Shown in pieces: positions 34,484-43,154 of a stretch of 64,000 nucleotides of DNA. How positions within the stretch are numbered: position 1 is the first letter of the stretch; each line of letters opens with the position of its first letter. This DNA is from an uncultured bacterium (GTDB lineage: Bacteria > Verrucomicrobiota > Verrucomicrobiia > Limisphaerales > UBA8199). Under the pieces are notes generated by a model, which saw nothing but the letters and a program-made list of their open reading frames with translations, had not been told where the DNA came from and searched no databases. The position numbers and the translations under genes were made by a program. The stretch is from contig CAVVMW010000005.1 of assembly GCA_963749495.1 (NCBI GenBank), forward strand, positions 288,001-352,000, read 5' to 3'.

Positions 34484-34558
34484 TGGCTGCCTCGCCTGGA
34501 ATTGCACCAGGTCCTTCGGTTTCAGAGACCGACGCGCTCCTGATTACACCACGAGGCC
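34484..34558 (-). tRNA. tRNA-Gln(CTG)
   Basis: TCGGT-CTCTGAA-ACCGA arm, encoded CCA. Confidence 0.85.
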
Positions 34559-34627
34559 CGCCGTCGCGCTTTGCGCTAAGGCGCGGCAAGCGATTGGCCC
34601 GCCGAGCCGTAGCCGGCAGGCGAAGGC

Positions 34628-34701
34628 TGGTCGCTCGGGAAGGTCCTGCCCCTCCGATTTCTGGGTGTAGGCCAGACGTGATGCTATTTCACCACCGAGC
34701 C
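34628..34701 (-). tRNA. tRNA-Val(TAC)
   Basis: TCTGG-CCTACAC-CCAGA; C33; CCA. Confidence 0.75.
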
Positions 34702-34811
34702 TTTCGAATGCGGAACTCGGAATGCGGAGTGCGGAGTGCCAAACGAGAACGAAGGCTGCTTGTGCGCGCGCCCCCATTCCGCACTCTGCATTCCCCACTC
34801 CGCACTGGGAA

Positions 34812-34885
34812 TGGCTGCCTCGCTTGGATTCGCACCAAGATCATCGGGGTCAAAGCCCGGCATGCTGCCGTTACACCACGAGGCA
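34812..34885 (-). tRNA. tRNA-Gln(TTG)
   Basis: TGCCTCG acceptor, CTTTGAC loop, CCA. Confidence 0.85.
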
Positions 34886-34993
34886 AGGAATCGGCCTGCC
34901 AAGCCGTAGCCCGGCACGTCACAAATGCTCGCCTCCGCACTAGCGTGCTTCGGCGCAGCAGCCCTCGCCACCCGTCGCGCGTGTGGCGAAGGC

Positions 34994-35070
34994 TGGTGGA
35001 GCCGGAGGTAGTTGCAACCTCACCAAACCCGATTAAAAGTCGGGTGCCGGTCTGCTGTGGCTTCGGATCC
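34994..35070 (-). tRNA. tRNA-Lys(TTT)
   Basis: CCCGA-CTTTTAA-TCGGG; CCA. Confidence 0.8.
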
Positions 35071-35077
35071 AGGAAAA

Positions 35078-35162
35078 TGGTGGGCGAGAGAGGATTTGCA
35101 CCTCCAAGGCTCACAGACTCTCGATCTGTGGGGTCTGCTAATTCCCTCTGAACCACTCGCCC
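35078..35162 (-). tRNA. tRNA-Leu(GAG), atypical fold
   Basis: ACAGA-TCGAGAG-TCTGT; short variable region; C33; CCA. Confidence 0.75.
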
Positions 35163-35171
35163 AAAGAAAAG

Positions 35172-35247
35172 TGGTGCTCCCGGCCGGAATCTCACCGGCA
35201 ACCTCAGCCTTCGGAGGGCCGCGCTCTGGTAATTGAGCTACAGGAGC
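35172..35247 (-). tRNA. tRNA-Arg(CCG)
   Basis: CGGCC-CTCCGAA-GGCTG; CCA. Confidence 0.85.
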
Positions 35248-35343
35248 AGTCCTAATGTGGAATTCGGAATGCGGAGTGCGGAATAAGAATGTGCACAGGG
35301 CTCTGCACACTCCGCATTCCGCACTCTACACTCACCACTTGAA

Positions 35344-35414
35344 GGGGTCTCCTGCCGGTGCTGCCCCGGCCTGGCTTGTTTACAAAACGAGCCTGCAGGC
35401 TGCCGCAAGGAGAC
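35344..35414 (-). tRNA. tRNA-Thr(TGT)-like, small D arm, no CCA
   Basis: GTCTCCT/AGGAGAC acceptor, TTTGTAA loop. Confidence 0.6.
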
Positions 35415-35452
35415 GAGATGGCCTGCCGAGCCGTAGCGCTCGGCGCGAAGGT

Positions 35453-35618
35453 TGGTCGCAATCCCCAGTGCTGCCCTGGGCACGGCTGGCTTATGAAACC
35501 GGCCTGAGCGCTAGCCCTTTCAAGTGCAAAGTGGAGAATGCAAAGTGCGGAATGCACCGGGCGCGGGCGTAGCGATGATAATTCTGCACTCCGAATTCCG
35601 CATTCTGCACTGATGGCG
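35453..35618 (-). tRNA. tRNA-Met/Ile2(CAT), interrupted by a heptamer hairpin
   Basis: TTCATAA loop, CCA; candidate 5' acceptor strand CGCCATC (35612-35618) lies beyond a roughly 90-nt hairpin. Confidence 0.55.
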
Positions 35619-35652
35619 GGTGGGTCTGCTCTTCCCCGTGAACCACGCGCCG
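35619..35652 (-). pseudogene. 5' half of a fifth atypical tRNA-Leu
   Basis: CGGCGCG-TGGTTCAC-GGG-GAAGAGCAGA-CCC matches the other Leu genes. Confidence 0.65.
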
Positions 35653-35658
35653 AGAAGA

Positions 35659-35769
35659 TGGCGTCCCTGACCGGCTTCGCTCCCGCCTTCGCTGGAAAGC
35701 TACGGCGGGGCAGGCCGGTGATCTCCTGCATGAGAGGCAGGCATTTTGTCTGGACTACACCACAGGGAC
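35659..35769 (-). tRNA. tRNA-Glu(CTC) with 33-nt insertion in the T arm
   Basis: CCTGC-CTCTCAT-GCAGG; insert 35682-35714; CCA. Confidence 0.8.
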
Positions 35770-35775
35770 TGAAAA

Positions 35776-35852
35776 TGGTGAGGGCAGGAGGCTTCGCACC
35801 CCCAACCTGATGCATGTGACGCATCCGCTCTGGCTGGCTGAGCTATGCCCTC
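35776..35852 (-). tRNA. tRNA-Val(CAC)
   Basis: GATGC-GTCACAT-GCATC; CCA. Confidence 0.85.
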
Positions 35853-35888
35853 AAAATGGCTCGCCGAGACGTAGCTCCGAGCGAAGGC

Positions 35889-35964
35889 TGGTGGGGGACG
35901 AAGAGTGCTGCCCTCTTTGCCTCTCGGATGTCAGACGAGCGCTCTCCTGGTGAGCTACGTCCCC
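35889..35964 (-). tRNA. tRNA-Val(GAC)
   Basis: CTGACAT loop, GCTC/GAGC D stem; CCA. Confidence 0.75.
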
Positions 35965-35970
35965 AACAAA

Positions 35971-36020
35971 TGGAGCGGGTGGACGGAGTCGCACCGTCGA
36001 CTCGGCCTTGGCACGGCCCT
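35971..36020 (-). pseudogene. tRNA-Gly(GCC), 3' two-thirds only
   Basis: GGCC-GTGCCAA-GGCC, T arm, CACCCGC-T-CCA; 5' part missing next to the GIY-YIG stop. Confidence 0.7.
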
Positions 36021-36030
36021 TGGAGATAAA

Positions 36031-36297
36031 CTAGCTCCCCAGGCTCTCCGCTCCGCCCCAGAAGTGTCGTTTTGCGAAGGCATGGCCGGACCCGCTCTTC
36101 AGGTATTTCTCGAAGTGCTGGGCCTGTTCAAGGGACTCGAACGCAACGTACACCTTGAGCGTCCAAGGTATGAACTTGGACGTGTGCGGACATTTACCGG
36201 CGTTATGGTCTGCCACTCGTTGACGGAGGTCTGCCGTATGACCGATGTACCTCTGGTCGCGGTGGCTCAAGCTCTGGATGACGTATGTGTAAAACAT
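36031..36297 (-). CDS. Stand-alone GIY-YIG nuclease
   Basis: YTYVIQS...YIGHT.DL..RV..HNAG...FEKYLKSGSG. Confidence 0.9.
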   Translation of the reverse strand: MFYTYVIQSLSHRDQRYIGHTADLRQRVADHNAGKCPHTSKFIPWTLKVYVAFESLEQAQHFEKYLKSGSGHAFAKRHFWGGAESLGS

Positions 36298-36680
36298 ATT
36301 GCGGCCTGCCATCCATAGCTTGGAACCCGTTCCGTGGAAAGTCCTCCTTCGCCGAGCCTACGGAGGACATCCTCCGTTTGGCCCCCTCGCCTGGCTCGGG
36401 TTCCGAGCGGAGGATGGTGTCCCCAGCCGATTAAATCCAGAACGAAGAATGCAAAGTGCAGAACGCCCCACTCCCTCGCCATTGTCGAAAACCCAAATCC
36501 ATTTTGCATTCTTCATTCTGAATTCTTCATTTCAAAGGGCGGCCTGGATTGCGGGTCCGGTTCCGCTCGCTGGGAAAGGAGGCCGTTTCCTGCTGCTTGT
36601 GCCGCCAGCGCAGGAACTTCTGAAACCGGGCAAAATTCGTTCGGAGCGAATTTTGATAGGTTTTGTCCTCGAAGAACAAA

Positions 36681-36768
36681 TGGCGGAATGCCGTGGACTT
36701 GCACCACTTGCCTGGAGGCACGCACTCGTTAGCACCGAGGCCCGGTTCGCTTGCCCGGTTGGCATTCC
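36681..36768 (-). tRNA. tRNA-Ser(GCT), 8/4 fold
   Basis: 8-bp acceptor GGAATGCC/GGCATTCC, 4-bp T stem, long variable arm, G73-CCA. Confidence 0.8.
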
Positions 36769-36808
36769 AGAAATGGCCTGCCGAGCCGAAGCTCGACAGA
36801 GCGAAGGC

Positions 36809-36892
36809 TGGTCGGCGTGGGGAGACTTGCGCTCCCAAGGCTGTTCGGGTTTGAGCCGAACCGGTCTGCTATTCCCGGTAAACCACACGCCG
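36809..36892 (-). tRNA. tRNA-Leu(CAA), atypical fold
   Basis: TTCGG-CTCAAAC-CCGAA; A73-CCA. Confidence 0.8.
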
Positions 36893-36924
36893 GCCCGCCG
36901 AGCCGTGGCCCGGGGAGCGAAGGT

Positions 36925-37010
36925 TGGTCGGCGCCCCGGGACTTGCACCCGGAAGGCTCAGCGATTTTAAGTCGCTGGGGTCTGCTGATTCCCGCTGAAG
37001 CCAGGCGCCG
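36925..37010 (-). tRNA. tRNA-Leu(TAA), atypical fold
   Basis: AGCGA-CTTAAAA-TCGCT; A73-CCA. Confidence 0.8.
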
Positions 37011-37123
37011 AGAAAATGGCCTGCCGGGTCGGAGTTCGGAGCGAGGGTCGGATGCCCGCCTACGCCTCAAAGGCAGGCTTCGGCGAGACAGTCTTCGTTC
37101 TCCGCTGCGCTCCGAACGAAGAC

Positions 37124-37207
37124 TGGTGGGCATGGAGGGACTTGCACCCCCAAGGCTGCCAGATTCTGAATCTGGACCCTCTGCTATTCGGGTTGAACCA
37201 CATGCCC
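37124..37207 (-). tRNA. tRNA-Leu(CAG), atypical fold
   Basis: CCAGA-TTCAGAA-TCTGG; A73-CCA. Confidence 0.8.
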
Positions 37208-37216
37208 AGTTGAAAT

Positions 37217-37292
37217 TGGTGCTCCCGGCAGGACTCTCACCTGCAACCGGCGGTTCGAAGCCGCCCGCTCTGATATTTTGAGCTACGGGAGC
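37217..37292 (-). tRNA. tRNA-Arg(TCG)
   Basis: GGCGG-CTTCGAA-CCGCC; CCA. Confidence 0.85.
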
Positions 37293-37378
37293 CCTCCAAA
37301 TGCAGAGTGCGGGATGCAGAGTGCAGAATGACGCCCTTCCGTTCTGCGTCCCCCATTTTGGATTATTCAGTTGAAAAT

Positions 37379-37825
37379 TGGGGCCGGTGGGGAGACTCGC
37401 ACTCCCGTGGTAACTGTTCAGGTGTTGGACCAGTGCTGGCTTCGACGCCAGCGCCGGGCCCAGCCAAGCCGTTGTCCCGGAGGGACAACCCGAGAATAGC
37501 CCGGCGCTTCAGCGCCGGGTCCGACGCCCTAAAAACCCCGCGTCCCGACAGGGACGCCTGAGGCTCAGCACCGCAAGAGGCCAGCCGATTCAGCCGTCCC
37601 TCCGGGACGGGCGGGAGATTAGACCGCTTTCCCCGGCGCTGAAGCGCCGGGCTATTTTCGGGCTGTCCCTTCGGGACAACGACGGCCCTCGAACCAGAGC
37701 GCGTCCCGAGAGGCCCCGGCGGCGATGTGGCAACCCATGTGCCGAGACCTGAACAGTTACCTCCCGTGGGACGAATTGCCCGGCAGTTTACGAAACTGCT
37801 GCTGTCGCTGCTGAGCCACGCCGGC
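37379..37825 (-). tRNA. tRNA-Thr(CGT) with long variable arm, split by a MITE
   Basis: GCAGT-TTCGTAA-ACTGC; removing 37410-37768 restores the gene. Confidence 0.75.
37410..37760. mobile_element. 351-bp MITE-like element carrying a REP-type long palindrome
   Basis: TIRs GTAACTGTTCAGGT/ACCTGAACAGTTAC; direct repeat CTCCCGTG at 37402-37409 and 37761-37768. Confidence 0.9.
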
Positions 37826-37933
37826 CTCCGAAATGCGGAATGCAGAGTGCGGAGTGCGGGATTGCACAGAGCCGTCACAACAACGCTTGTGCTCCTCATT
37901 CCGCACTCAGCACTCCGAACTCCGCACTGAAAA

Positions 37934-38007
37934 TGGTGGGTCGCCACGGTGCTGCCCCGTGCTCTGCGGTTTAAGAGACCGCTGCATCGCTGCAATGCTT
38001 GCAACCC
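37934..38007 (-). tRNA. tRNA-Lys(CTT)
   Basis: GCGGT-CTCTTAA-ACCGC; CCA. Confidence 0.85.
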
Positions 38008-38010
38008 AAC

Positions 38011-38085
38011 CGCGACACGAAGGCGGAGTTGAACCGCCGCAGCCAGATCTGTGAAGTCCTGGCCGGCACCGGTGTTCGCGTCGCG
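38011..38085 (-). ncRNA. tRNA-like RNA (11-bp closing stem, canonical T arm, no CCA)
   Basis: CGCGACGCGAA/TTCGTGTCGCG; GGCGG-TTCAACT-CCGCC. Confidence 0.55.
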
Positions 38086-38090
38086 TGAAA

Positions 38091-38165
38091 TGGAATCCCG
38101 TGTGAGAGTCGCACTCACCTGCGCGGTTTTGCAGACCGCTGCCTGGGCTGCTCGGCCAACGGGAC
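38091..38165 (-). tRNA. tRNA-Cys(GCA)
   Basis: GCGGT-CTGCAAA-ACCGC; U73-CCA. Confidence 0.85.
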
Positions 38166-38273
38166 ATCTGAATGCGGAGTGCGGAGTGCGGAGTGCAGAG
38201 TGCAGAGTGCGCAATGTCTGCGGTGCTGCCCCTCAGGCATTCCGCATTCTGCACTCCGCACTCAGCATTTGGT

Positions 38274-38700
38274 TCACGCTGCCCGCACAAAGTCCGAGAT
38301 GACGGCTGGAACGCTGGTGTCGAAACCAACCACGTCCAGCATCCCGCGGTCGTTCGGGTCGGCCAGGGTGAAGCCACTTAAATGAAGAGTTAAGAATGCA
38401 GAATGAAGAACGGAGGACGCCCTCAGCCGCCGTTGGTCTTGATTCCTCATTGTGCATTCTTCATTCTGCATTCATGTGGGCCCAGACCATCGGCAGCGAG
38501 CAATCCGTGCCGCCCATCGGGATCGCACGGACCTTCTCGATGACGCTTTCCAGGCGCATTCGGGGCGAGAGGGCGACCCGGGTAATGCCTGACTCACCGC
38601 CACCCCGCTGGCCGCCGTGACCGCTGGCGGCTGCGCTGAAGGCGATGATCTCGCACTCGGGGTCGGTTGCCGCCGTCACCAGGGCCATGGCGATGGACAA
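38274..38700 (-). pseudogene. rsr: Ro60/TROVE protein, C-terminal vWA remnant
   Basis: AMALVTAAT...MGGTDCSLPMVWA and GFTLADPNDRGMLDVVGFD; split by a heptamer hairpin, N-terminus absent. Confidence 0.8.
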
Positions 38701-38701
38701 G

Positions 38702-38821
38702 TGGCGCCGTAGGGTGGGGATCTCCTTACGGGAATCGAACCCGTCCGGAACTTGAATCCGGGCGCTCTCCCATGGCGAGCGTCCTCCCCGTGCTGGAGGA
38801 TGACCTGCGGACTTCGGCCCA
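38702..38821 (-). ncRNA. tRNA-like RNA on a long stalk (Y-RNA candidate)
   Basis: D-like GCTC..GAGC, hairpin CCGGA/TCCGG, ACGGG-TTCGATT-CCCGT; ends pair; abuts the Ro60 remnant. Confidence 0.55.
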
Positions 38822-38828
38822 TGCGAAT

Positions 38829-38936
38829 TGGTCAGGAAGCCGGGATTCGCACCCGGACCGTCCGCTTCACAGGCGGAGATGCTGTCCACCCTCCGCAGTG
38901 CTGCTACGGAGGACGGGCTGTTACACCACAATCCTG
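38829..38936 (-). tRNA. tRNA-His(GTG) with 33-nt insertion in the D loop
   Basis: TCCGC-CTGTGAA-GCGGA; insert 38884-38916; A73. Confidence 0.75.
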
Positions 38937-38941
38937 GAAAA

Positions 38942-39019
38942 TGGTGCCCCCAGGTGGACTCGCACCACGATCCTCCTGCTTCGCGGGCAGGCGTGCACAT
39001 TCTCTTACACCTTGGGGGC
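38942..39019 (-). tRNA. tRNA-Arg(GCG)
   Basis: CCTGC-CCGCGAA-GCAGG; C33; CCA. Confidence 0.8.
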
Positions 39020-39112
39020 CTTGGAAGTGCGGATTTCGGAGTGCGGAGTGCGAAATGGCTGACGATTCCGGTGCGCCTCATTCCGCATTCCGCATTCTGC
39101 ACTCTGCACTTG

Positions 39113-39191
39113 GAGCGTCCGTGGCCGGACTTGCACCGGCTATGCCCGGCTTGAAGGGCCGGCTGCTCGAGCCTGCTTTGCATTCACGGAC
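39113..39191 (-). tRNA. tRNA-Glu(TTC)
   Basis: CCGGC-CCTTCAA-GCCGG; C33; G73. Confidence 0.75.
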
Positions 39192-39323
39192 AAATTGTTC
39201 ACCGTGGAAGGCTGGAACCACGGGGATTTCTGAACTCAGAATGGAGAATGAAGAGTGCAGAATGTCGAACCCTGCTGGCTCATTCTGCACTTTGCATTCC
39301 CCACTCTGCATTTGAGAGGCGCG

Positions 39324-40467
39324 CTAACGCCGGAGCGCGCGCGTCTTGTAGGTGAGGAGCGGCCGGAAGGTGGCGATAACCGAGATGAGTCCGGCGTCCG
39401 CCAGGTCCTGGACCACGTCCTCGATGCTCTTGTAGGCGGCTGGGGCCTCTTCGTAGAGCAACTCGCGCGGCTCGCAGATGACTTGGCCCCCCAGCGGCGT
39501 TTGGGTCAACTGCTGCCGGCCAAACCGTTCGCGCATGCGCAGGCGGCTCTCACTCCGGGCCCGACCTGCGGCCGGCACCGTGGGCCAAAGACCAGGCGTG
39601 GCTGACGCCATCTCCAATGGGCTTCACGAGGTAACTGAGCGACCCGCGGGAGCCAGGGATCATCACCGGCTCCCGTTCGGCTGCCACGGCACCCTTCCGA
39701 TGCACCCAGACCGCTTCGCCAGGGCTGCCCCTCACCCCGTCCCTCTCCCCATCGGATGGGGAGAGGGTGGCCGCAAGGCCGGGTGAGGGGACGCGAGCGA
39801 TGCTGTTGTGGCAGCCGTCCCAGAGGCACTCGGCCTCCGCTCCCAGCGCCTCGACGAATCGTCGAGCGATGAGCGCCCGGTTTGTCTTGGCCCACCTCAG
39901 GGCCAAGTCATGGTCGCGGAGATAGCCCGCCGCAGCAAACGACTCGGGATCGGAGCCTTCGGCCTGATGCTCTTCCGCGTACGCCCGCAGGACCGATTCG
40001 CCCAGACCGCGCGAGCCGCTGTGGACCAGAACCACCAGTTGCTGTTTGCCCAGGCCCAACCGCCTGAATGCTGCTGCGTCCAAGACGGCCTCGACCTTCT
40101 GCAGTTCGGCGAAGTGATTGGCGCCGCCGATGGTCCCCAGCGCTTCATCGAACTCCGTGGATTCAAGCTCCGCTACGGCGAGAACCTCGCCCACATCGCC
40201 TTCCCACGGATGCTCCAGGTCAAAGCGAAGGTCGGCCCACCCGCCTACGCGCTCCGCGCTCCGGCGCGGCAGGTCTGTCTTGAACAGGGCCGTGCCGCAA
40301 CCGATGTCGCCGCCGATGAGGTGGGGATAAATGACGCCCTTGGTGACGAGGGCGGCGCCCACCGGGCTGCCCTTGCCCGGGTGCAGGTCCGGGAAACCGA
40401 CCGCCAGGCGTACACTTTCGAGTCGTGCCGCCGCATAAAGCTGGCGAACCGCTTCGCCTTCGATCAT
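39324..40467 (-). pseudogene. rtcB: RtcB-family RNA ligase (PrfH-coupled RtcB2-like), frameshifted near 39560
   Basis: PDLHPGKG, GDIGCG, NHFAE, HSGSRG, HN, HRKGA, HGAGR, EEAPAAYK, RPLLTYK. Confidence 0.85.
39729..39790. repeat. CCCTCACCCC..CCCTCTCCC palindromic element inserted in frame in rtcB
   Basis: Nested hairpin encoding PSPGLAATLSPSDGERDGVRG between the HN and HRKG motifs. Confidence 0.75.
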
Positions 40468-40585
40468 CTGCCTGCCCTCCGCAAAATGTAGAATGAAGAA
40501 TGCAGAATGAAGAATGCCCCGGATCACGCACCGCAGGGCGCGGACGGAGATTCTGCATTCTCCATTCTGCACTCTGCATTTGAAC

Positions 40586-40692
40586 TGGCTGCCAGGGTTG
40601 GACTCGCACCCGCCGTCGCTCGGAGCTATGGCGGGGCAGGCCAACACCTAACGGCTTAACAGGCCGCCGTGCTGCTTTGACACAACCTGGCA
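40586..40692 (-). tRNA. tRNA-Asn(GTT) with 32-nt insertion in the T arm
   Basis: GCGGC-CTGTTAA-GCCGT; insert 40609-40640; G73-CCA. Confidence 0.8.
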
Positions 40693-40694
40693 AT

Positions 40695-40750
40695 TGGCGC
40701 TGCCGGCAGGAGTTGCACCCGCATGAGTTCGTTTAGAAGACGAATGCCCC
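40695..40750 (-). pseudogene. tRNA-Arg(TCT), 5' end replaced by a heptamer hairpin
   Basis: TTCGT-CTTCTAA-ACGAA, T arm, CCA. Confidence 0.7.
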
Positions 40751-40859
40751 TTCCAAGTGCAGAGTGAAGAGTGCAGAGTGCGGAATGCCGCGGTCGGGAG
40801 CGAGTGGCTCCAGCCTCTGGCCATTCTGCATTCCGCACTCCGCACTCCGCATTCAAGAA

Positions 40860-40948
40860 TGGTGGGAGGTGCTGGTAACGCTCCAGTCGTCGCTTCCGAC
40901 AGTTGTTTTTGACGCCGGTTTTACGGACCGGCAGTCGGAACACCTCCC
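40860..40948 (-). tRNA. tRNA-Tyr(GTA)-like, D-armless 8/4 fold
   Basis: GGGAGGTG/CACCTCCC, GCCGGT-CCGTAAA-ACCGGC, A73-CCA. Confidence 0.7.
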
Positions 40949-41065
40949 GAGATTGGCTTGCCGCGCCGTAGCTCGAAGCCGCGCGAATGCACGCGGGCGG
41001 TACGGCCCGCCTTCGCTTCGCTACGGCGCGGCAGCCTCGCTCTCAGACTGGCTTCGAGCGGAGGC

Positions 41066-41138
41066 TGGTAGCGGGGGTGGGAGTCGCGCCCACGAAGGCT
41101 GAGGTTATGGGCCTCGCCTGAATCTCATTCTCCCCGCA
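41066..41138 (-). tRNA. tRNA-Met(CAT), initiator-like, minimal D arm
   Basis: 1:72 mismatch, GCGGGG/CCCCGC, CCCATAA loop, CCA. Confidence 0.7.
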
Positions 41139-41149
41139 GTGAAATGGCG

Positions 41150-41167
41150 AACAAAGAACAAACACCT
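41150..41167. repeat. 18-bp inverted repeat, leader arm (boxA-like on the minus strand)
   Basis: AACAAAGAACAAACACCT; complementary to 34416-34433. Confidence 0.9.
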
Positions 41168-41448
41168 CTTGCTACCTTGCGGTACCAACCCACGGTTTCA
41201 CGGTGGTTCTTTCGGTGTTTGGGGGCACACCTCCTGCGAAGCCCATTTGAATGTAGAATGAAGAGTGTAGAGTGAAGAATGCCGCACGAGCGGCTCCGGC
41301 TCTTTCGACGGGGCGCCCATTCTGCGCTCTGCATTCTGCGCTCTGCATTCGATTATGGTGACATCATCAAGACGTCGGTTTCTTTTCGTTCACAGTGCTT
41401 TGCCTTTCGTTGTCGAGTTTTGCTTCTTTCAGTGCTGCACGGGTAAAC

Positions 41449-41481
41449 AAAAAACCCTGCTTCCATTCCGGTAAGCAGGGT
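41449..41481 (-). terminator. Intrinsic terminator in the tRNA-operon leader
   Basis: ACCCTGCTT-loop-AAGCAGGGT followed by TTTTTG. Confidence 0.85.
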
Positions 41482-41502
41482 GCAAAAAGTCTTTTGGTTC
41501 GG

Positions 41503-41673
41503 TTACCTGCTTACCTTCAATCTATCCAGATTGGCTTCGGGGTTTTGTCCACGATACGCCCTGGATAGGCCGAGGCTGAACCAATAGCCTCGGCTGGACC
41601 AGCTATGACGTGTCGCCTGCGCGACCGACGTCATCGGCCAAATCGAGACTAATATGTTCATGCAAGTTTTCAT
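41503..41673 (-). CDS. Putative leader peptide (56 aa, or 52 aa from the ATG at 41661)
   Basis: MKTCMNILVSIW...LDRLKVSR*; last codons overlap the antiterminator strand 41506-41515. Confidence 0.6.
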   Translation of the reverse strand: MKTCMNILVSIWPMTSVAQATRHSWSSRGYWFSLGLSRAYRGQNPEANLDRLKVSR

Positions 41674-41787
41674 CGAACTTGGTTCATACTTATCACATGT
41701 CCCTAATCTTGTCCACTTATATCTTTAGGGTATCCTATATCTTAAATTCAAATATCTGGATAGGTTGATACATCGCTCCCCTCCGGT

Positions 41788-43154
41788 TCACCGGAGTTTA
41801 AGCAATCGCACCTCAAGCGGCGCAAGGGTGAGCGGAGCGTCCACCGGCCTGCCGGTCAGGACATCCTGCACCGCCATTGGCCGGCCGTCGCGCATCAGGA
41901 CTGCCGTCACCGGCTCCTTTCGGTAGTTGCAGAGATTCACCACGGTCCCTTGGGCTGTTTCGGTGCTCCGCCATTCCACGCCCCAAGCGGGCTGCCGCTC
42001 GGCCTCGCGCAGCTCCAGCGTGGGACGCAGGTCCCATGCGGGAAGCTTCGCCAGGATTTGTTCGTGCAGCTTCCGGGACGAAGTGGAACCGTGCCGGAAC
42101 GGGAGCTTGTCGGTGGCTGAGAGCTCGGGCCGTCTTTCGTGCCCATACTCATCCCGGCCCAGCACGTCGTCGTCGCCGACCAGCACCACACGCCCCTTGA
42201 ACTGCCGCAGTCCCGCCAAGGCTGCACCAGCGAGATGGACAACGCCGGGCACAAAAACCAATGGCGCCTGCGGGACGGAACCTGTCTCTGGATGATGTTC
42301 ACACCGTAGTCCGGCCACTTCTCCATGTCCGAGACGACCTGGCTGAAGTGCCCATAGCCGGTGAAGAAAACCGGACGCTCCTGCGGGACGCCACCCGGCA
42401 GGCAGGCCGGAGCCACAAAAGAACTGCGCCTGATGACAGGGCGCTGGTCGCCGGTCCAACGTGGCACGGCAGGGAACTGCCGCTGCCCGGCCAGGGCCTC
42501 TTTGAGTTCGCCACCCAAGCGCGATGCCATTCGTTCCAGGTCGCCGACCTGCTCGAGGGAACGGCGGACTTCTCCGTGGCGGGCGTCTTCCTCCGCATAG
42601 CCGATGAAGTTCTCCAGCACGGTGGCCGTGACTGCGGGATACGAGGGGTCCTGTCCGCGCGATTTGACCGCCTGCAAGTCCGCTTTCAGCGCGGGCAGGC
42701 TCGCCTTCAGGGCGCCTAACCGCTGGAGCGCGTTGGCGGCGGAGAAGAACCCTACGGGCGCGCTGGCGGCAGTGCTTTCCTGGTTCGCCTCCTCCAGGCG
42801 CAGCGTCAGCGCGCATCGCGCATCGCTGGCGGCTGCGCTTTCCCCTTTGACCAGCACCCGCCACACGCCCGCGGCGAGGCTAATGGTCTGGCGGACCGGT
42901 TCCCAGGAGCCCCATCCCGCAGAAAAAGCCCCGGTCACCGCGCGCGGGTTGCTCAACGTGAAAGCGACGCTAAACGGCCCATCGCCCTGGACCACGGTTT
43001 GCGCCTCTTCGGCTTCCAGAAACACCTTGTGACCGGTCGCGCACGCAGCGTCAGTATTGCGCCGGTCCCATCGCCAACCGGCCGGGAGGCCGGCGGAAGC
43101 GACTCGCTCGAAGCCCGAATTGGGAAGCAGGTTAGGCCGGCACTCGTGCTTCAA
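41788..43154 (-). pseudogene. Fragments of a secreted glycoside-hydrolase-like protein
   Basis: NLLPNSGFE, PVFFTGYGHF, and C-terminal LTLAPLEVRLL in another frame. Confidence 0.5.

Follow-up and report, generated by a model that had tools for sequence, protein, structure and literature searches.

The window, a stretch of 64,000 nucleotides from an uncultured bacterium of the Verrucomicrobiota (contig CAVVMW010000005.1, positions 288,001 to 352,000), carries a candidate regulatory leader upstream of an array of tRNA genes with an RtcB-like open reading frame (ORF). All parts of the leader, namely a short ORF, a 10-nt arm and an intrinsic terminator, lie on the minus strand. An earlier note on this DNA had read the leader as a rare-codon attenuator of the tRNA array, with an ORF of 56 or 52 codons ending in a perfect 10-nt complement of the terminator. 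Both elements were recovered, the ORF at 41673..41503 (minus strand) and the complementary segments at 41515-41506 and 41479-41470. The features of the leader and of the sequence directly after it are as follows.

41725..41769, minus strand: conserved upstream block in the alignments of 20 and 75 copies, holding ATCCAGAT (41761-41754) and an AT-rich stretch
41687..41721, minus strand: predicted promoter, with TATAAG (41721-41716), -35 TGGACA (41715-41710), a 17-nt spacer and extended -10 TGaTAAGTA (41695-41687)
41503..41673, minus strand: leader ORF, 56 codons that cover all 20 amino acids; its stop codon TAA (41505-41503) abuts the antiterminator arm
41595..41640, minus strand: hairpin H1 in the ORF, a composite stem with apical GTCGC/GCGAC, from the minimum free energy (MFE) fold
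41569..41594, minus strand: hairpin H2 in the ORF, GCCGAGGCT / AGCCTCGGC, from the MFE fold and the alignment
41522..41568, minus strand: hairpin H3 in the ORF, CTATCCAG ... CTGGATAG, from the MFE fold and the alignment
41575..41663, minus strand: alternative long-range helix between codons ~4-10 (41663-41643) and the apical part of H2 (41593-41575), from the MFE fold of the nascent leader
41506..41515, minus strand: antiterminator 5' arm A, GGTAAGCAGG, formed by the last codons of the ORF
41449..41480, minus strand: intrinsic terminator, with arm B CCCTGCTT, a 10-nt loop, arm C AAGCAGGG (41462-41455) and T6 (41454-41449)
41260..41448, minus strand: linker that varies between copies, apart from partly conserved blocks, and carries GC-rich repeat hairpins
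41150..41259, minus strand: module 2, a very conserved element of ~110 nt that follows the leader in most copies

The peptide encoded by 41673..41503 is MKTCMNILVSIWPMTSVAQATRHSWSSRGYWFSLGLSRAYRGQNPEANLDRLKVSR* (56 codons, or 52 if the second ATG is used), and its codons include ATA, TTA, CTA, CGA, AGA, GTA and two AGG, as had been listed. Arm A, GGTAAGCAGG, is the exact reverse complement of CCTGCTTACC at 41479-41470, and this 10-nt target consists of the 5' arm of the terminator and two bases of the loop. A complement of at least 10 nt to the 5' arm and loop arose in the 220 nt upstream in 6 of 5000 dinucleotide-preserving shuffles. The fold of 41440-41700 had a z-score of -4.98, and none of 200 shuffles folded equally well.

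A BLAST search with 41100-41800 identified four more full-length leaders in the genome to which the window belongs (contigs C15, C25, C21 and C4), an isolated module 2 on contig C7, and a unit of ~620 nt in 20 of 41 related genomes. The order of the unit is promoter-like block, ORF with three hairpins, arms A, B and C, variable linker and module 2. A scan of one-genome-per-species contigs for the terminator pattern gave at least 116 loci, 112 of which matched a hidden Markov model (HMM) of the leader; nearly all of the matches listed were labelled Verrucomicrobiota (Verrucomicrobiia, Limisphaerales, Pedosphaera). Viral contigs contained no exact match to the terminator pattern, a strict pattern whose absence says little. 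Altogether, 148 unique leader copies were gathered, mostly from records labelled Verrucomicrobiota.

In the first 20 copies the ORF was open in all 20, was 55-59 codons long and stopped 3-6 nt past arm A. The ATG was invariant in 75 of 75 aligned copies, and the length of the ORF over the family was 46-69 codons. In 110 of 117 unique copies the ATG and the end of arm A were separated by a multiple of 3 nt, and these in-frame copies fell into 12 lengths from 138 to 207 nt. Among 106 intact copies the stop codons TAA, TAG and TGA occurred 69, 20 and 17 times, respectively, directly at the end of arm A or, in one subgroup, exactly one codon later; the site of the stop codon, whose overlap with the antiterminator the earlier note had named as a check, is kept while the codon itself changes. 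Point nonsense mutations were not found among the copies. Of the 504 single-step neighbours of the consensus codons, 20 are stops; with 292 single-step variant types observed, roughly a dozen nonsense variants would be expected if stops were neutral. An independent set was anchored on module 2 in 301 genomes of the order and was therefore blind to both ORF and terminator. It held the leader in 59 of 60 loci, and in 56 of these 59 an ORF of at least 40 codons ended 21-30 nt before arm B. The comparison clearly points to selection on the frame, the ATG and the stop codon of an ORF that is presumably translated.

Selection on the leader peptide itself is weak by the same comparison, as expected of a regulatory ORF. 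Entropy by codon position was 0.92, 0.97 and 1.06, respectively, and the synonymous share of the variant types was 0.295 compared with 0.233 possible. Shine-Dalgarno (SD)-like words were found in 5 of 117 leaders. The genome of the window itself showed no SD enrichment before 1339 well-bounded ATG starts (0.207, compared with 0.213 inside genes), so the missing SD before the leader ORF is uninformative; the host apparently initiates without SD pairing.

All 20 amino acids were present in 89 of 106 leader peptides. In the enlarged set they were present in 112 of 137 intact unique leaders, and twenty more contained 19, counts that are inflated by the relatedness of the copies. By comparison, all 20 occurred in 2.3% of random windows of the same length taken from long ORFs of the same genome and in 8.1% of nucleotide-shuffled, stop-free leaders. 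Asp, Tyr, Trp, Phe and His were mostly present exactly once per peptide. Trp was placed early only in 79 peptides, late only in 36, in both parts in 18 and in neither in 4, and the subgroup without the first ATG, and hence without Cys-4, has Cys elsewhere. That the full set is kept despite such residue turnover would be hard to explain except by selection for every amino acid. Tandem codons of one amino acid, as in the classic amino-acid operons, are not present in the leader ORF. The proposal of a general translation sensor in the earlier note is strengthened by this content, a signal which that note had overlooked.

The rare codons, to which the note had attributed the sensing, gave a different result. 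Codon use was tabulated from a crude set of 770 long ORFs of the same genome (11.4 Mb, 63% G+C), in which TTA, CTA and AGA are the three rarest codons with 1.1, 1.6 and 2.3 per 1000, respectively, and ATA occurs 3.3 times per 1000. The leader ORF had a rare-codon load of 12.7% and a codon adaptation index (CAI) of 0.48, compared with 5.4% and 0.67 for a normal gene encoding the same peptide (P ~0.02). Nucleotide shuffles of the ORF gave 16.9% rare codons and a CAI of 0.44, so that the load of the leader is not above the expectation from its base composition, and rare codons were rejected as the sensing principle. Some of the conserved rare codons are parts of helices (CTA and AGA in H3, GTA/AGG in arm A), and the rare codons can be ascribed to low local G+C together with the conserved helices. 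The principle suggested by the peptides is that all 20 amino acids, in place of rare codons, are sampled.

The same frame could encode a small basic protein of ~56 residues that acts with the tRNA arrays; the terminator would then serve this gene itself, and the A:B complementarity would be incidental. Such a gene would account for the conserved frame, start and stop, for some synonymous variation at the conserved positions T3, C4, I7, R40, G48 and F51, and for a terminator 21-30 nt after the stop codon. It fits poorly with the weak selection at the peptide level, with its many radical replacements, and with the last codons, which keep their complementarity to the terminator arm in 97% of cells and have changed along with that arm in a diverged leader described below. 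In addition, the peptide matched no Pfam family, and an all-20 composition is odd for a protein of 48-56 residues (2.3% of own-protein windows). We consider a small-protein gene improbable.

The terminator consists of an 8-10-bp GC-rich stem followed by T6, and its arms B and C were paired in 100% of cells in the alignment of 75 copies. The antiterminator A:B has 10 bp and was paired in 97% of cells of the same alignment. The mean energies of the two structures were balanced (-17.6 +/- 2.3 kcal/mol for the antiterminator and -16.1 +/- 0.8 kcal/mol for the terminator, n = 117). When nascent RNA ending at arm B was folded without a ribosome, A:B was formed in the MFE structure of 143 of 148 copies. 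As arm B belongs to both helices, the predicted antiterminator and the terminator are mutually exclusive. The stop codon sits 21-30 nt before arm B. Given the known sizes of ribosome footprints, a ribosome at the stop codon would cover A but not B, and the geometry of the ORF is thus one in which the position of the ribosome would decide the fold.

Arm B is almost invariant (CCCTGCTT[AG]C in 55 of the 60 module-2-anchored loci), which explains why covariation between A and B is sparse. Arm sequences of the 148 unique leaders were taken by HMM columns. The pair A3:B8 was U-A in 131 leaders, C-A in 10, G-A in 3, C-G in 3 and A-G in 1. Position A3 was C, which compensates the change in B, in 3 of 4 copies with G at B8, and it was C in 10 of 144 copies with A at B8 (Fisher P = 0.002, uncorrected for relatedness). 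In locus L172 the arms A, B and C had changed together, a triple compensatory change.

The best independent support for the switch comes from the diverged leader that heads the C7 array of the same genome (locus L013, 6008-6265), whose arms have co-varied. Its promoter is TTGACA-16-TAAGAT with TG at the equivalent place, and the surroundings of the start codon are similar. The 48-codon ORF encodes all 20 amino acids and ends in arm A GGTAGGCGG (GGTAGG), immediately followed by TAA. The terminator is CCCCTACC/GGTAGGGG in this leader and CCCCTGCC/GGCAGGGG in its relative. In both, arm A (GGTAGG) fits the changed terminator of its own leader, TAA again stands directly after the arm, and the 48-residue peptide holds all 20 amino acids. 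This type of leader was found in 2 of 45 genomes of the family, the own genome included, which is too few for statistics.

In the loci compared, the leader forms a conserved unit that stands at the 5' edge of tRNA arrays on its own strand. Same-strand tRNA genes followed the unit in 15 of 20 oriented loci, and four of the five loci without downstream tRNAs end (contig or locus end) within 1.4 kb. Among loci having at least 1.2 kb of downstream sequence, 47 of 64 had same-strand tRNAs downstream, and tRNAs upstream of the leader were found in only 4 of 72 loci. In three other loci searched with Rfam, 37 of 37 matches were same-strand tRNAs downstream of the leader. ARAGORN predicted 126 tRNAs in the genome of the window, with five arrays of at least 5. 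Four of these arrays (C15, C25, C4 and the window's own contig, C5) adjoin leader copies on shared contigs, and the fifth (C7) comes after the diverged leader; the C21 copy heads a looser run of six ARAGORN tRNAs. The array of the window has the marks of a long tRNA array (L-array), with at least 11 same-strand tRNA matches and the RtcB-like ORF, and the unit is patchily distributed (20 of 41 relatives).

The connection of the leader with the array in the earlier note agrees with its position at the 5' edge of arrays; one correction is that the tRNA genes found by ARAGORN and Rfam begin ~2.4 kb downstream of the leader (39019 and below). Module 2, tRNA-like genes and the RtcB-like ORF lie between the terminator and these tRNAs, on the same strand. 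The downstream features are as follows.

41066..41147, minus strand: tRNA-like gene that folds as a cloverleaf, its anticodon loop containing CAU and its end encoding ACCA
40858..40953, minus strand: second tRNA-like fold (z = -3.1), with three arms, an ACCA end and an acceptor-like stem of 8 bp, GGGAGGTG/CACCTCCC
39550..40647, minus strand: RtcB-like ORF (Pfam E = 2.8e-48; PHROG 'tRNA splicing ligase')
within 38461..39183, minus strand: short Ro60-vWA-like piece, whose ORF overlaps the tRNA match 38945-39019
34487..39019, minus strand: tRNA genes, at least 11 matches by ARAGORN/Rfam
34487..40647, minus strand: presumed regulated unit of the RtcB-like ORF, the Ro60-vWA-like piece and at least 11 tRNA genes, all on one strand

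The structures within the ORF are also conserved. In the alignment of 75 rows, the helices of the window MFE fold were paired in 77% of cells, compared with 31-41% for slid versions. Their covariation score was 0.164, compared with 0.03-0.08 for slid versions, and none of 500 shuffles reached it; the tested helices were taken from the MFE fold of the window, which is one of the aligned sequences, and this somewhat favours them over the slid versions. RNAalifold returned the terminator alone on this gappy alignment. The apical stem of H1 was 93% paired with changes on both sides, and one copy has an unrelated 8-bp stem at this place. In H2, the pair 252/297 was AU in 20 copies, GC in 15 and CG in 14. 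The outer stem of H3 was 79% paired, and 8 of 8 pairs had changed on both sides. The long-range helix excludes H2. Its main helix of 14 pairs was 75.5% paired in the 75 copies, and the whole structure of 17 pairs was 70% paired, compared with 22-48% for slid versions. The hairpins and the long-range helix may pause the polymerase, limit re-initiation or serve another function.

With such structures, the leader might be a structured non-coding RNA or a riboswitch that senses a ligand, a protein or a tRNA, with H1-H3 as the sensor, the arms A, B and C as the expression platform and the open frame as a by-product. The strong folding (z = -4.98), the covariation of H1-H3 and the long-range helix, and conservation that is mostly at the nucleotide level would all be expected of it. 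It leaves unexplained why the frame is held through 12 length classes with an invariant ATG and a fixed stop site at which TAA, TAG and TGA exchange, and why the all-20 content persists through residue turnover and in the diverged leader. No match was found for 39100-42000 in Rfam 15 (T-box, riboswitches, leaders and Y RNA included) even at E up to 1, apart from noise, and neither the leader nor module 2 corresponded to an Rfam family at gathering thresholds, in the window or in the three other loci. We consider a riboswitch or other structured non-coding RNA improbable.

In the alignment of 75 copies, T, G, A and C of the -35 box and TA of the -10 box were invariant or nearly so. The conserved positions fit a -35 box TKGACW (41715-41710), a 17-nt spacer and an extended -10 box TGnTAnnnn (41695-41687), from which transcription is predicted to start at ~41680-41678, 5-7 nt before the ATG. 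A palindrome with the family consensus ATCCGGAT (ATCCAGAT in the window, 41761-41754) precedes this start by about 75-80 nt. The upstream block is possibly a regulator site or an UP element, and, as the palindrome could bind a regulator, a second control at the level of the promoter is possible. The mini-ORF MNQVR* described in the earlier note is present at 41687-41670 and does overlap the main ATG. It is not a conserved feature, since its start codon was found in only 4 of 20 aligned copies (the window, L009, L014 and L015), and it is probably untranscribed because it begins inside the predicted -10 box.

Two metatranscriptome contigs from two studies, X2 (whole, 251 nt) and X8 (260 nt), span ~41678-41427, and RNA-library contigs of two studies end at 41677/41678, a weak indication of the start. 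The RNA runs contained only 0.05-0.06 of the sampled words, and contigs of this kind carry no information on ends, strand or level; low contig cover at 41255-41330 carries no weight. The pattern of the contigs hints, only weakly, at a discrete leader RNA together with read-through.

These two contigs, which span only ~41678-41427, would also fit a stand-alone small RNA (sRNA) or the terminator of an upstream operon, with the array served by its own downstream promoter and possibly by a regulator that binds the palindrome. The conserved palindrome ATCCGGAT suggests promoter-level control, and the cyanobacterial arrays are controlled by a repressor (PMC10272220). Against such an arrangement, the leader stands at the 5' edge of the array on the same strand in many genomes; an antiterminator would be purposeless in the terminator of a plain sRNA, and other RNA-library contigs run through the terminator. 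Nor did the tandem direct repeats of the type bound by the repressor TrcR, TGTWNWWNWNNWGTANYNWA, which lie over the -10 box and start site, have any match in the window with up to one mismatch. Similarity among the 20 aligned copies sets in abruptly at 41769, and the flanks farther upstream are unrelated, which argues that the leader is not the terminator of an upstream operon. We regard an sRNA or an independently transcribed array as very improbable.

On the observed anatomy and its conservation, the leader is probably a ribosome-mediated transcription attenuator, the regulatory leader of a supernumerary L-array with an RtcB-like RNA ligase gene; that the ORF is translated, that transcription ends at the terminator, which way the switch works, joint transcription with the array and any feedback through its tRNAs are inferences. 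The logic of translated leader, antiterminator and terminator put forward in the earlier note agrees with the comparisons of frame, stop codon, A:B and B:C pairing, energies and array position. In the proposed mechanism, a sigma-70-like promoter would start the RNA a few bases before the AUG, without a Shine-Dalgarno sequence, and a ribosome would then translate an ORF of 46-69 codons in which all 20 amino acids occur and whose end lies immediately behind arm A. On ribosome-free nascent RNA the antiterminator A:B would form first, once B emerges. A ribosome that keeps pace with the polymerase would reach the stop codon and cover A, so that B would pair with C and transcription would terminate at the T-run (off). 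A ribosome that lags or stalls in the first ~48 codons would leave A free, A:B would form, and the polymerase would read through into the tRNA and RtcB genes (on). The triggers could be the lack of any charged tRNA, damage to tRNAs, or elongation-slowing drugs. With all amino acids sampled, the array would open if any tRNA species ran short or was damaged, or if elongation slowed in general. It is about an even chance that the unit goes further and acts as a mobile, self-contained meter of charged tRNA, in which an all-amino-acid ORF under selection, a race between ribosome and polymerase, and a reserve operon for tRNA and RNA repair, opened when any one decoding step slows and yielding products that speed up the ribosome, form a feedback loop.

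Several observations weigh against the attenuator. The equilibrium fold of the full leader favours the terminator in 138 of 148 copies, even with no ribosome present. As the nascent fold contains A:B and the finished leader the terminator, the outcome of the switch ('default on') would depend on folding kinetics. The A:B covariation consists of few events among related sequences, and in L173, L152 and L168 changes in B are compensated in C or nowhere and are unmatched in A. Seven of the 117 copies are out of frame, four of them from one series of metagenome-assembled genomes, which we take to be long-read assemblies, and the ORF is not intact in 11 of the 148 unique copies. From the predicted start, the 5' untranslated region would measure no more than ~5-7 nt. 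The three covarying hairpins and the long-range helix are superfluous in a simple model and hint at further functions. Between the terminator of the window and the first canonical tRNA lie 2.4 kb with other conserved elements, which leaves room for internal promoters. Finally, the RNA-library contigs come from relatives and may contain DNA, and some of them cross the predicted start and the terminator.

The trpL, hisL, leuL, thrL, pheL and ilv leaders have a short translated ORF, a terminator and an antiterminator that shares its 5' arm, and the position of the ribosome decides between the two. In contrast to leaders of the trpL/hisL type, the leader of the window has no run of codons for one amino acid, and all 20 amino acids are present, many of them once. 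Its ORF is 46-69 codons long across the family, compared with ~14-30 codons in those leaders, and it has no obvious pause hairpin of the 1:2 type that would enforce termination without translation. The targets here are tRNA and RNA-repair genes instead of biosynthetic enzymes, and the host does not use SD sequences. The terminators and antiterminators of T-box riboswitches report tRNA charging as well, but T-boxes bind one uncharged tRNA directly, need no ORF and control synthetase and amino-acid genes; no Rfam T-box match was found in the window.

The closest characterised architectures are bmrB-bmrCD and the uORF of whiB7. According to PMC4191407, bmrB-bmrCD of Bacillus subtilis has a leader ORF of 162 nt with alternative stem-loops, and drug-induced read-through requires translation of the leader. 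The inducers are drugs that target the ribosome, and rare codons raise the basal read-through (PMC4191407). The long leader ORF with alternative stem-loops is shared with the window; bmrB differs in having its terminator within the ORF and a drug exporter as its target, the two leaders are unrelated in sequence, and an all-20 composition is not reported in the passages of PMC4191407 considered. In the mycobacterial whiB7 uORF, stalling is believed to be antiterminating, and the system responds to many defects of amino acids, tRNAs and synthetases (PMC10274678). The broad sensing of translation stress proposed for the window would be of this kind, whereas the whiB7 uORF is enriched in alanine, has a transcription factor as its target and is unrelated in sequence (PMC10274678).

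Long tRNA arrays themselves have been described in Anabaena, where the L-array is normally silent and comes on, along with rtcB, under translational stress, and L-arrays have been reported in Verrucomicrobia too (PMC8421152). The array of the window resembles the Anabaena trn L-array as a long supernumerary array linked to rtcB, and the proposed opening under stress agrees with the measured behaviour of that array (PMC8421152). Its control acts at the promoter, through the repressor TrcR on direct repeats (PMC10272220), and the terms attenuat-, leader and terminator are absent from the main text of PMC8421152. A full-text literature search found no description of attenuation or of a leader ORF before tRNA arrays. 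Compared with the closest characterised architectures, the all-20 design, the geometry with the stop codon on the arm, and tRNA genes as the target are different.

To our knowledge, the switching-on of long tRNA arrays is known for one cyanobacterium only, through a promoter repressor. The present leaders suggest that a large family of arrays bears a different, purely cis-acting device that is legible from the sequence. If the mechanism holds, leader-peptide attenuation would be extended to the sensing of every amino acid instead of one, and to control of the tRNA pool itself instead of enzyme genes. It would also offer a simple and testable model of how bacteria, and perhaps phages, detect depletion of or damage to tRNA, and would solve by means of RNA a problem for which cyanobacteria use TrcR. 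The all-20 rule could serve as a sequence signature for finding further sensors of this kind.

Module 2 was found in 84 of 301 genomes of the order, with 80-97% identity across families. In this element CAAACACC can pair with GGTGTTTG around two covarying hairpins, and metatranscriptome contigs of 98-110 nt from three runs cover module 2 alone. The tRNA-like gene at 41066-41147 was detected by neither ARAGORN nor Rfam; its D arm (a stem of 4 bp and a loop of 3 nt) and its T loop (CGCGACU) are odd. It is 92-99% identical in 10 further loci of those compared and absent from the rest, and its distance from the leader varies. The second fold, at 40858-40953, was covered by RNA-library contigs in 3 of 4 runs (X1, X5 and X8).

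The best stretch of the RtcB-like ORF covers only profile positions 139-354 of 426, and the ORF is possibly truncated or frameshifted. Together with the Ro60-vWA-like piece it resembles an RNA-repair module embedded in the array. A Y RNA beside Ro60 and RtcB was considered and dropped, as the Rfam scan contained no Y RNA match. Two Acido-Lenti-1 RNA matches above the gathering score lie within the tRNA array, at 37632-37678 (plus strand) and 37473-37519 (minus strand). An acidobacterial origin, to which these matches had pointed, was dropped in view of the Verrucomicrobiota labels of the related loci. Outside its arrays the genome contains, according to ARAGORN, two tRNA-SeC genes, one suppressor-like tRNA listed as 'Stop(tta)', and two tRNAs whose anticodon loops are odd. 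Among the ORFs upstream of the leader, PHROGs gave a single weak match to a tail protein (E = 2.6e-5), so that a prophage there is possible. GC-rich repeat hairpins of GAATGC/GAGTGC-like units, such as AATGCAGAGCGCAGAATGCAGAGCGCAGAATG, occur at 41318-41345 and 40760-40850 (minus strand); they sit in the linker and between the genes of the array, and they recur in other copies.

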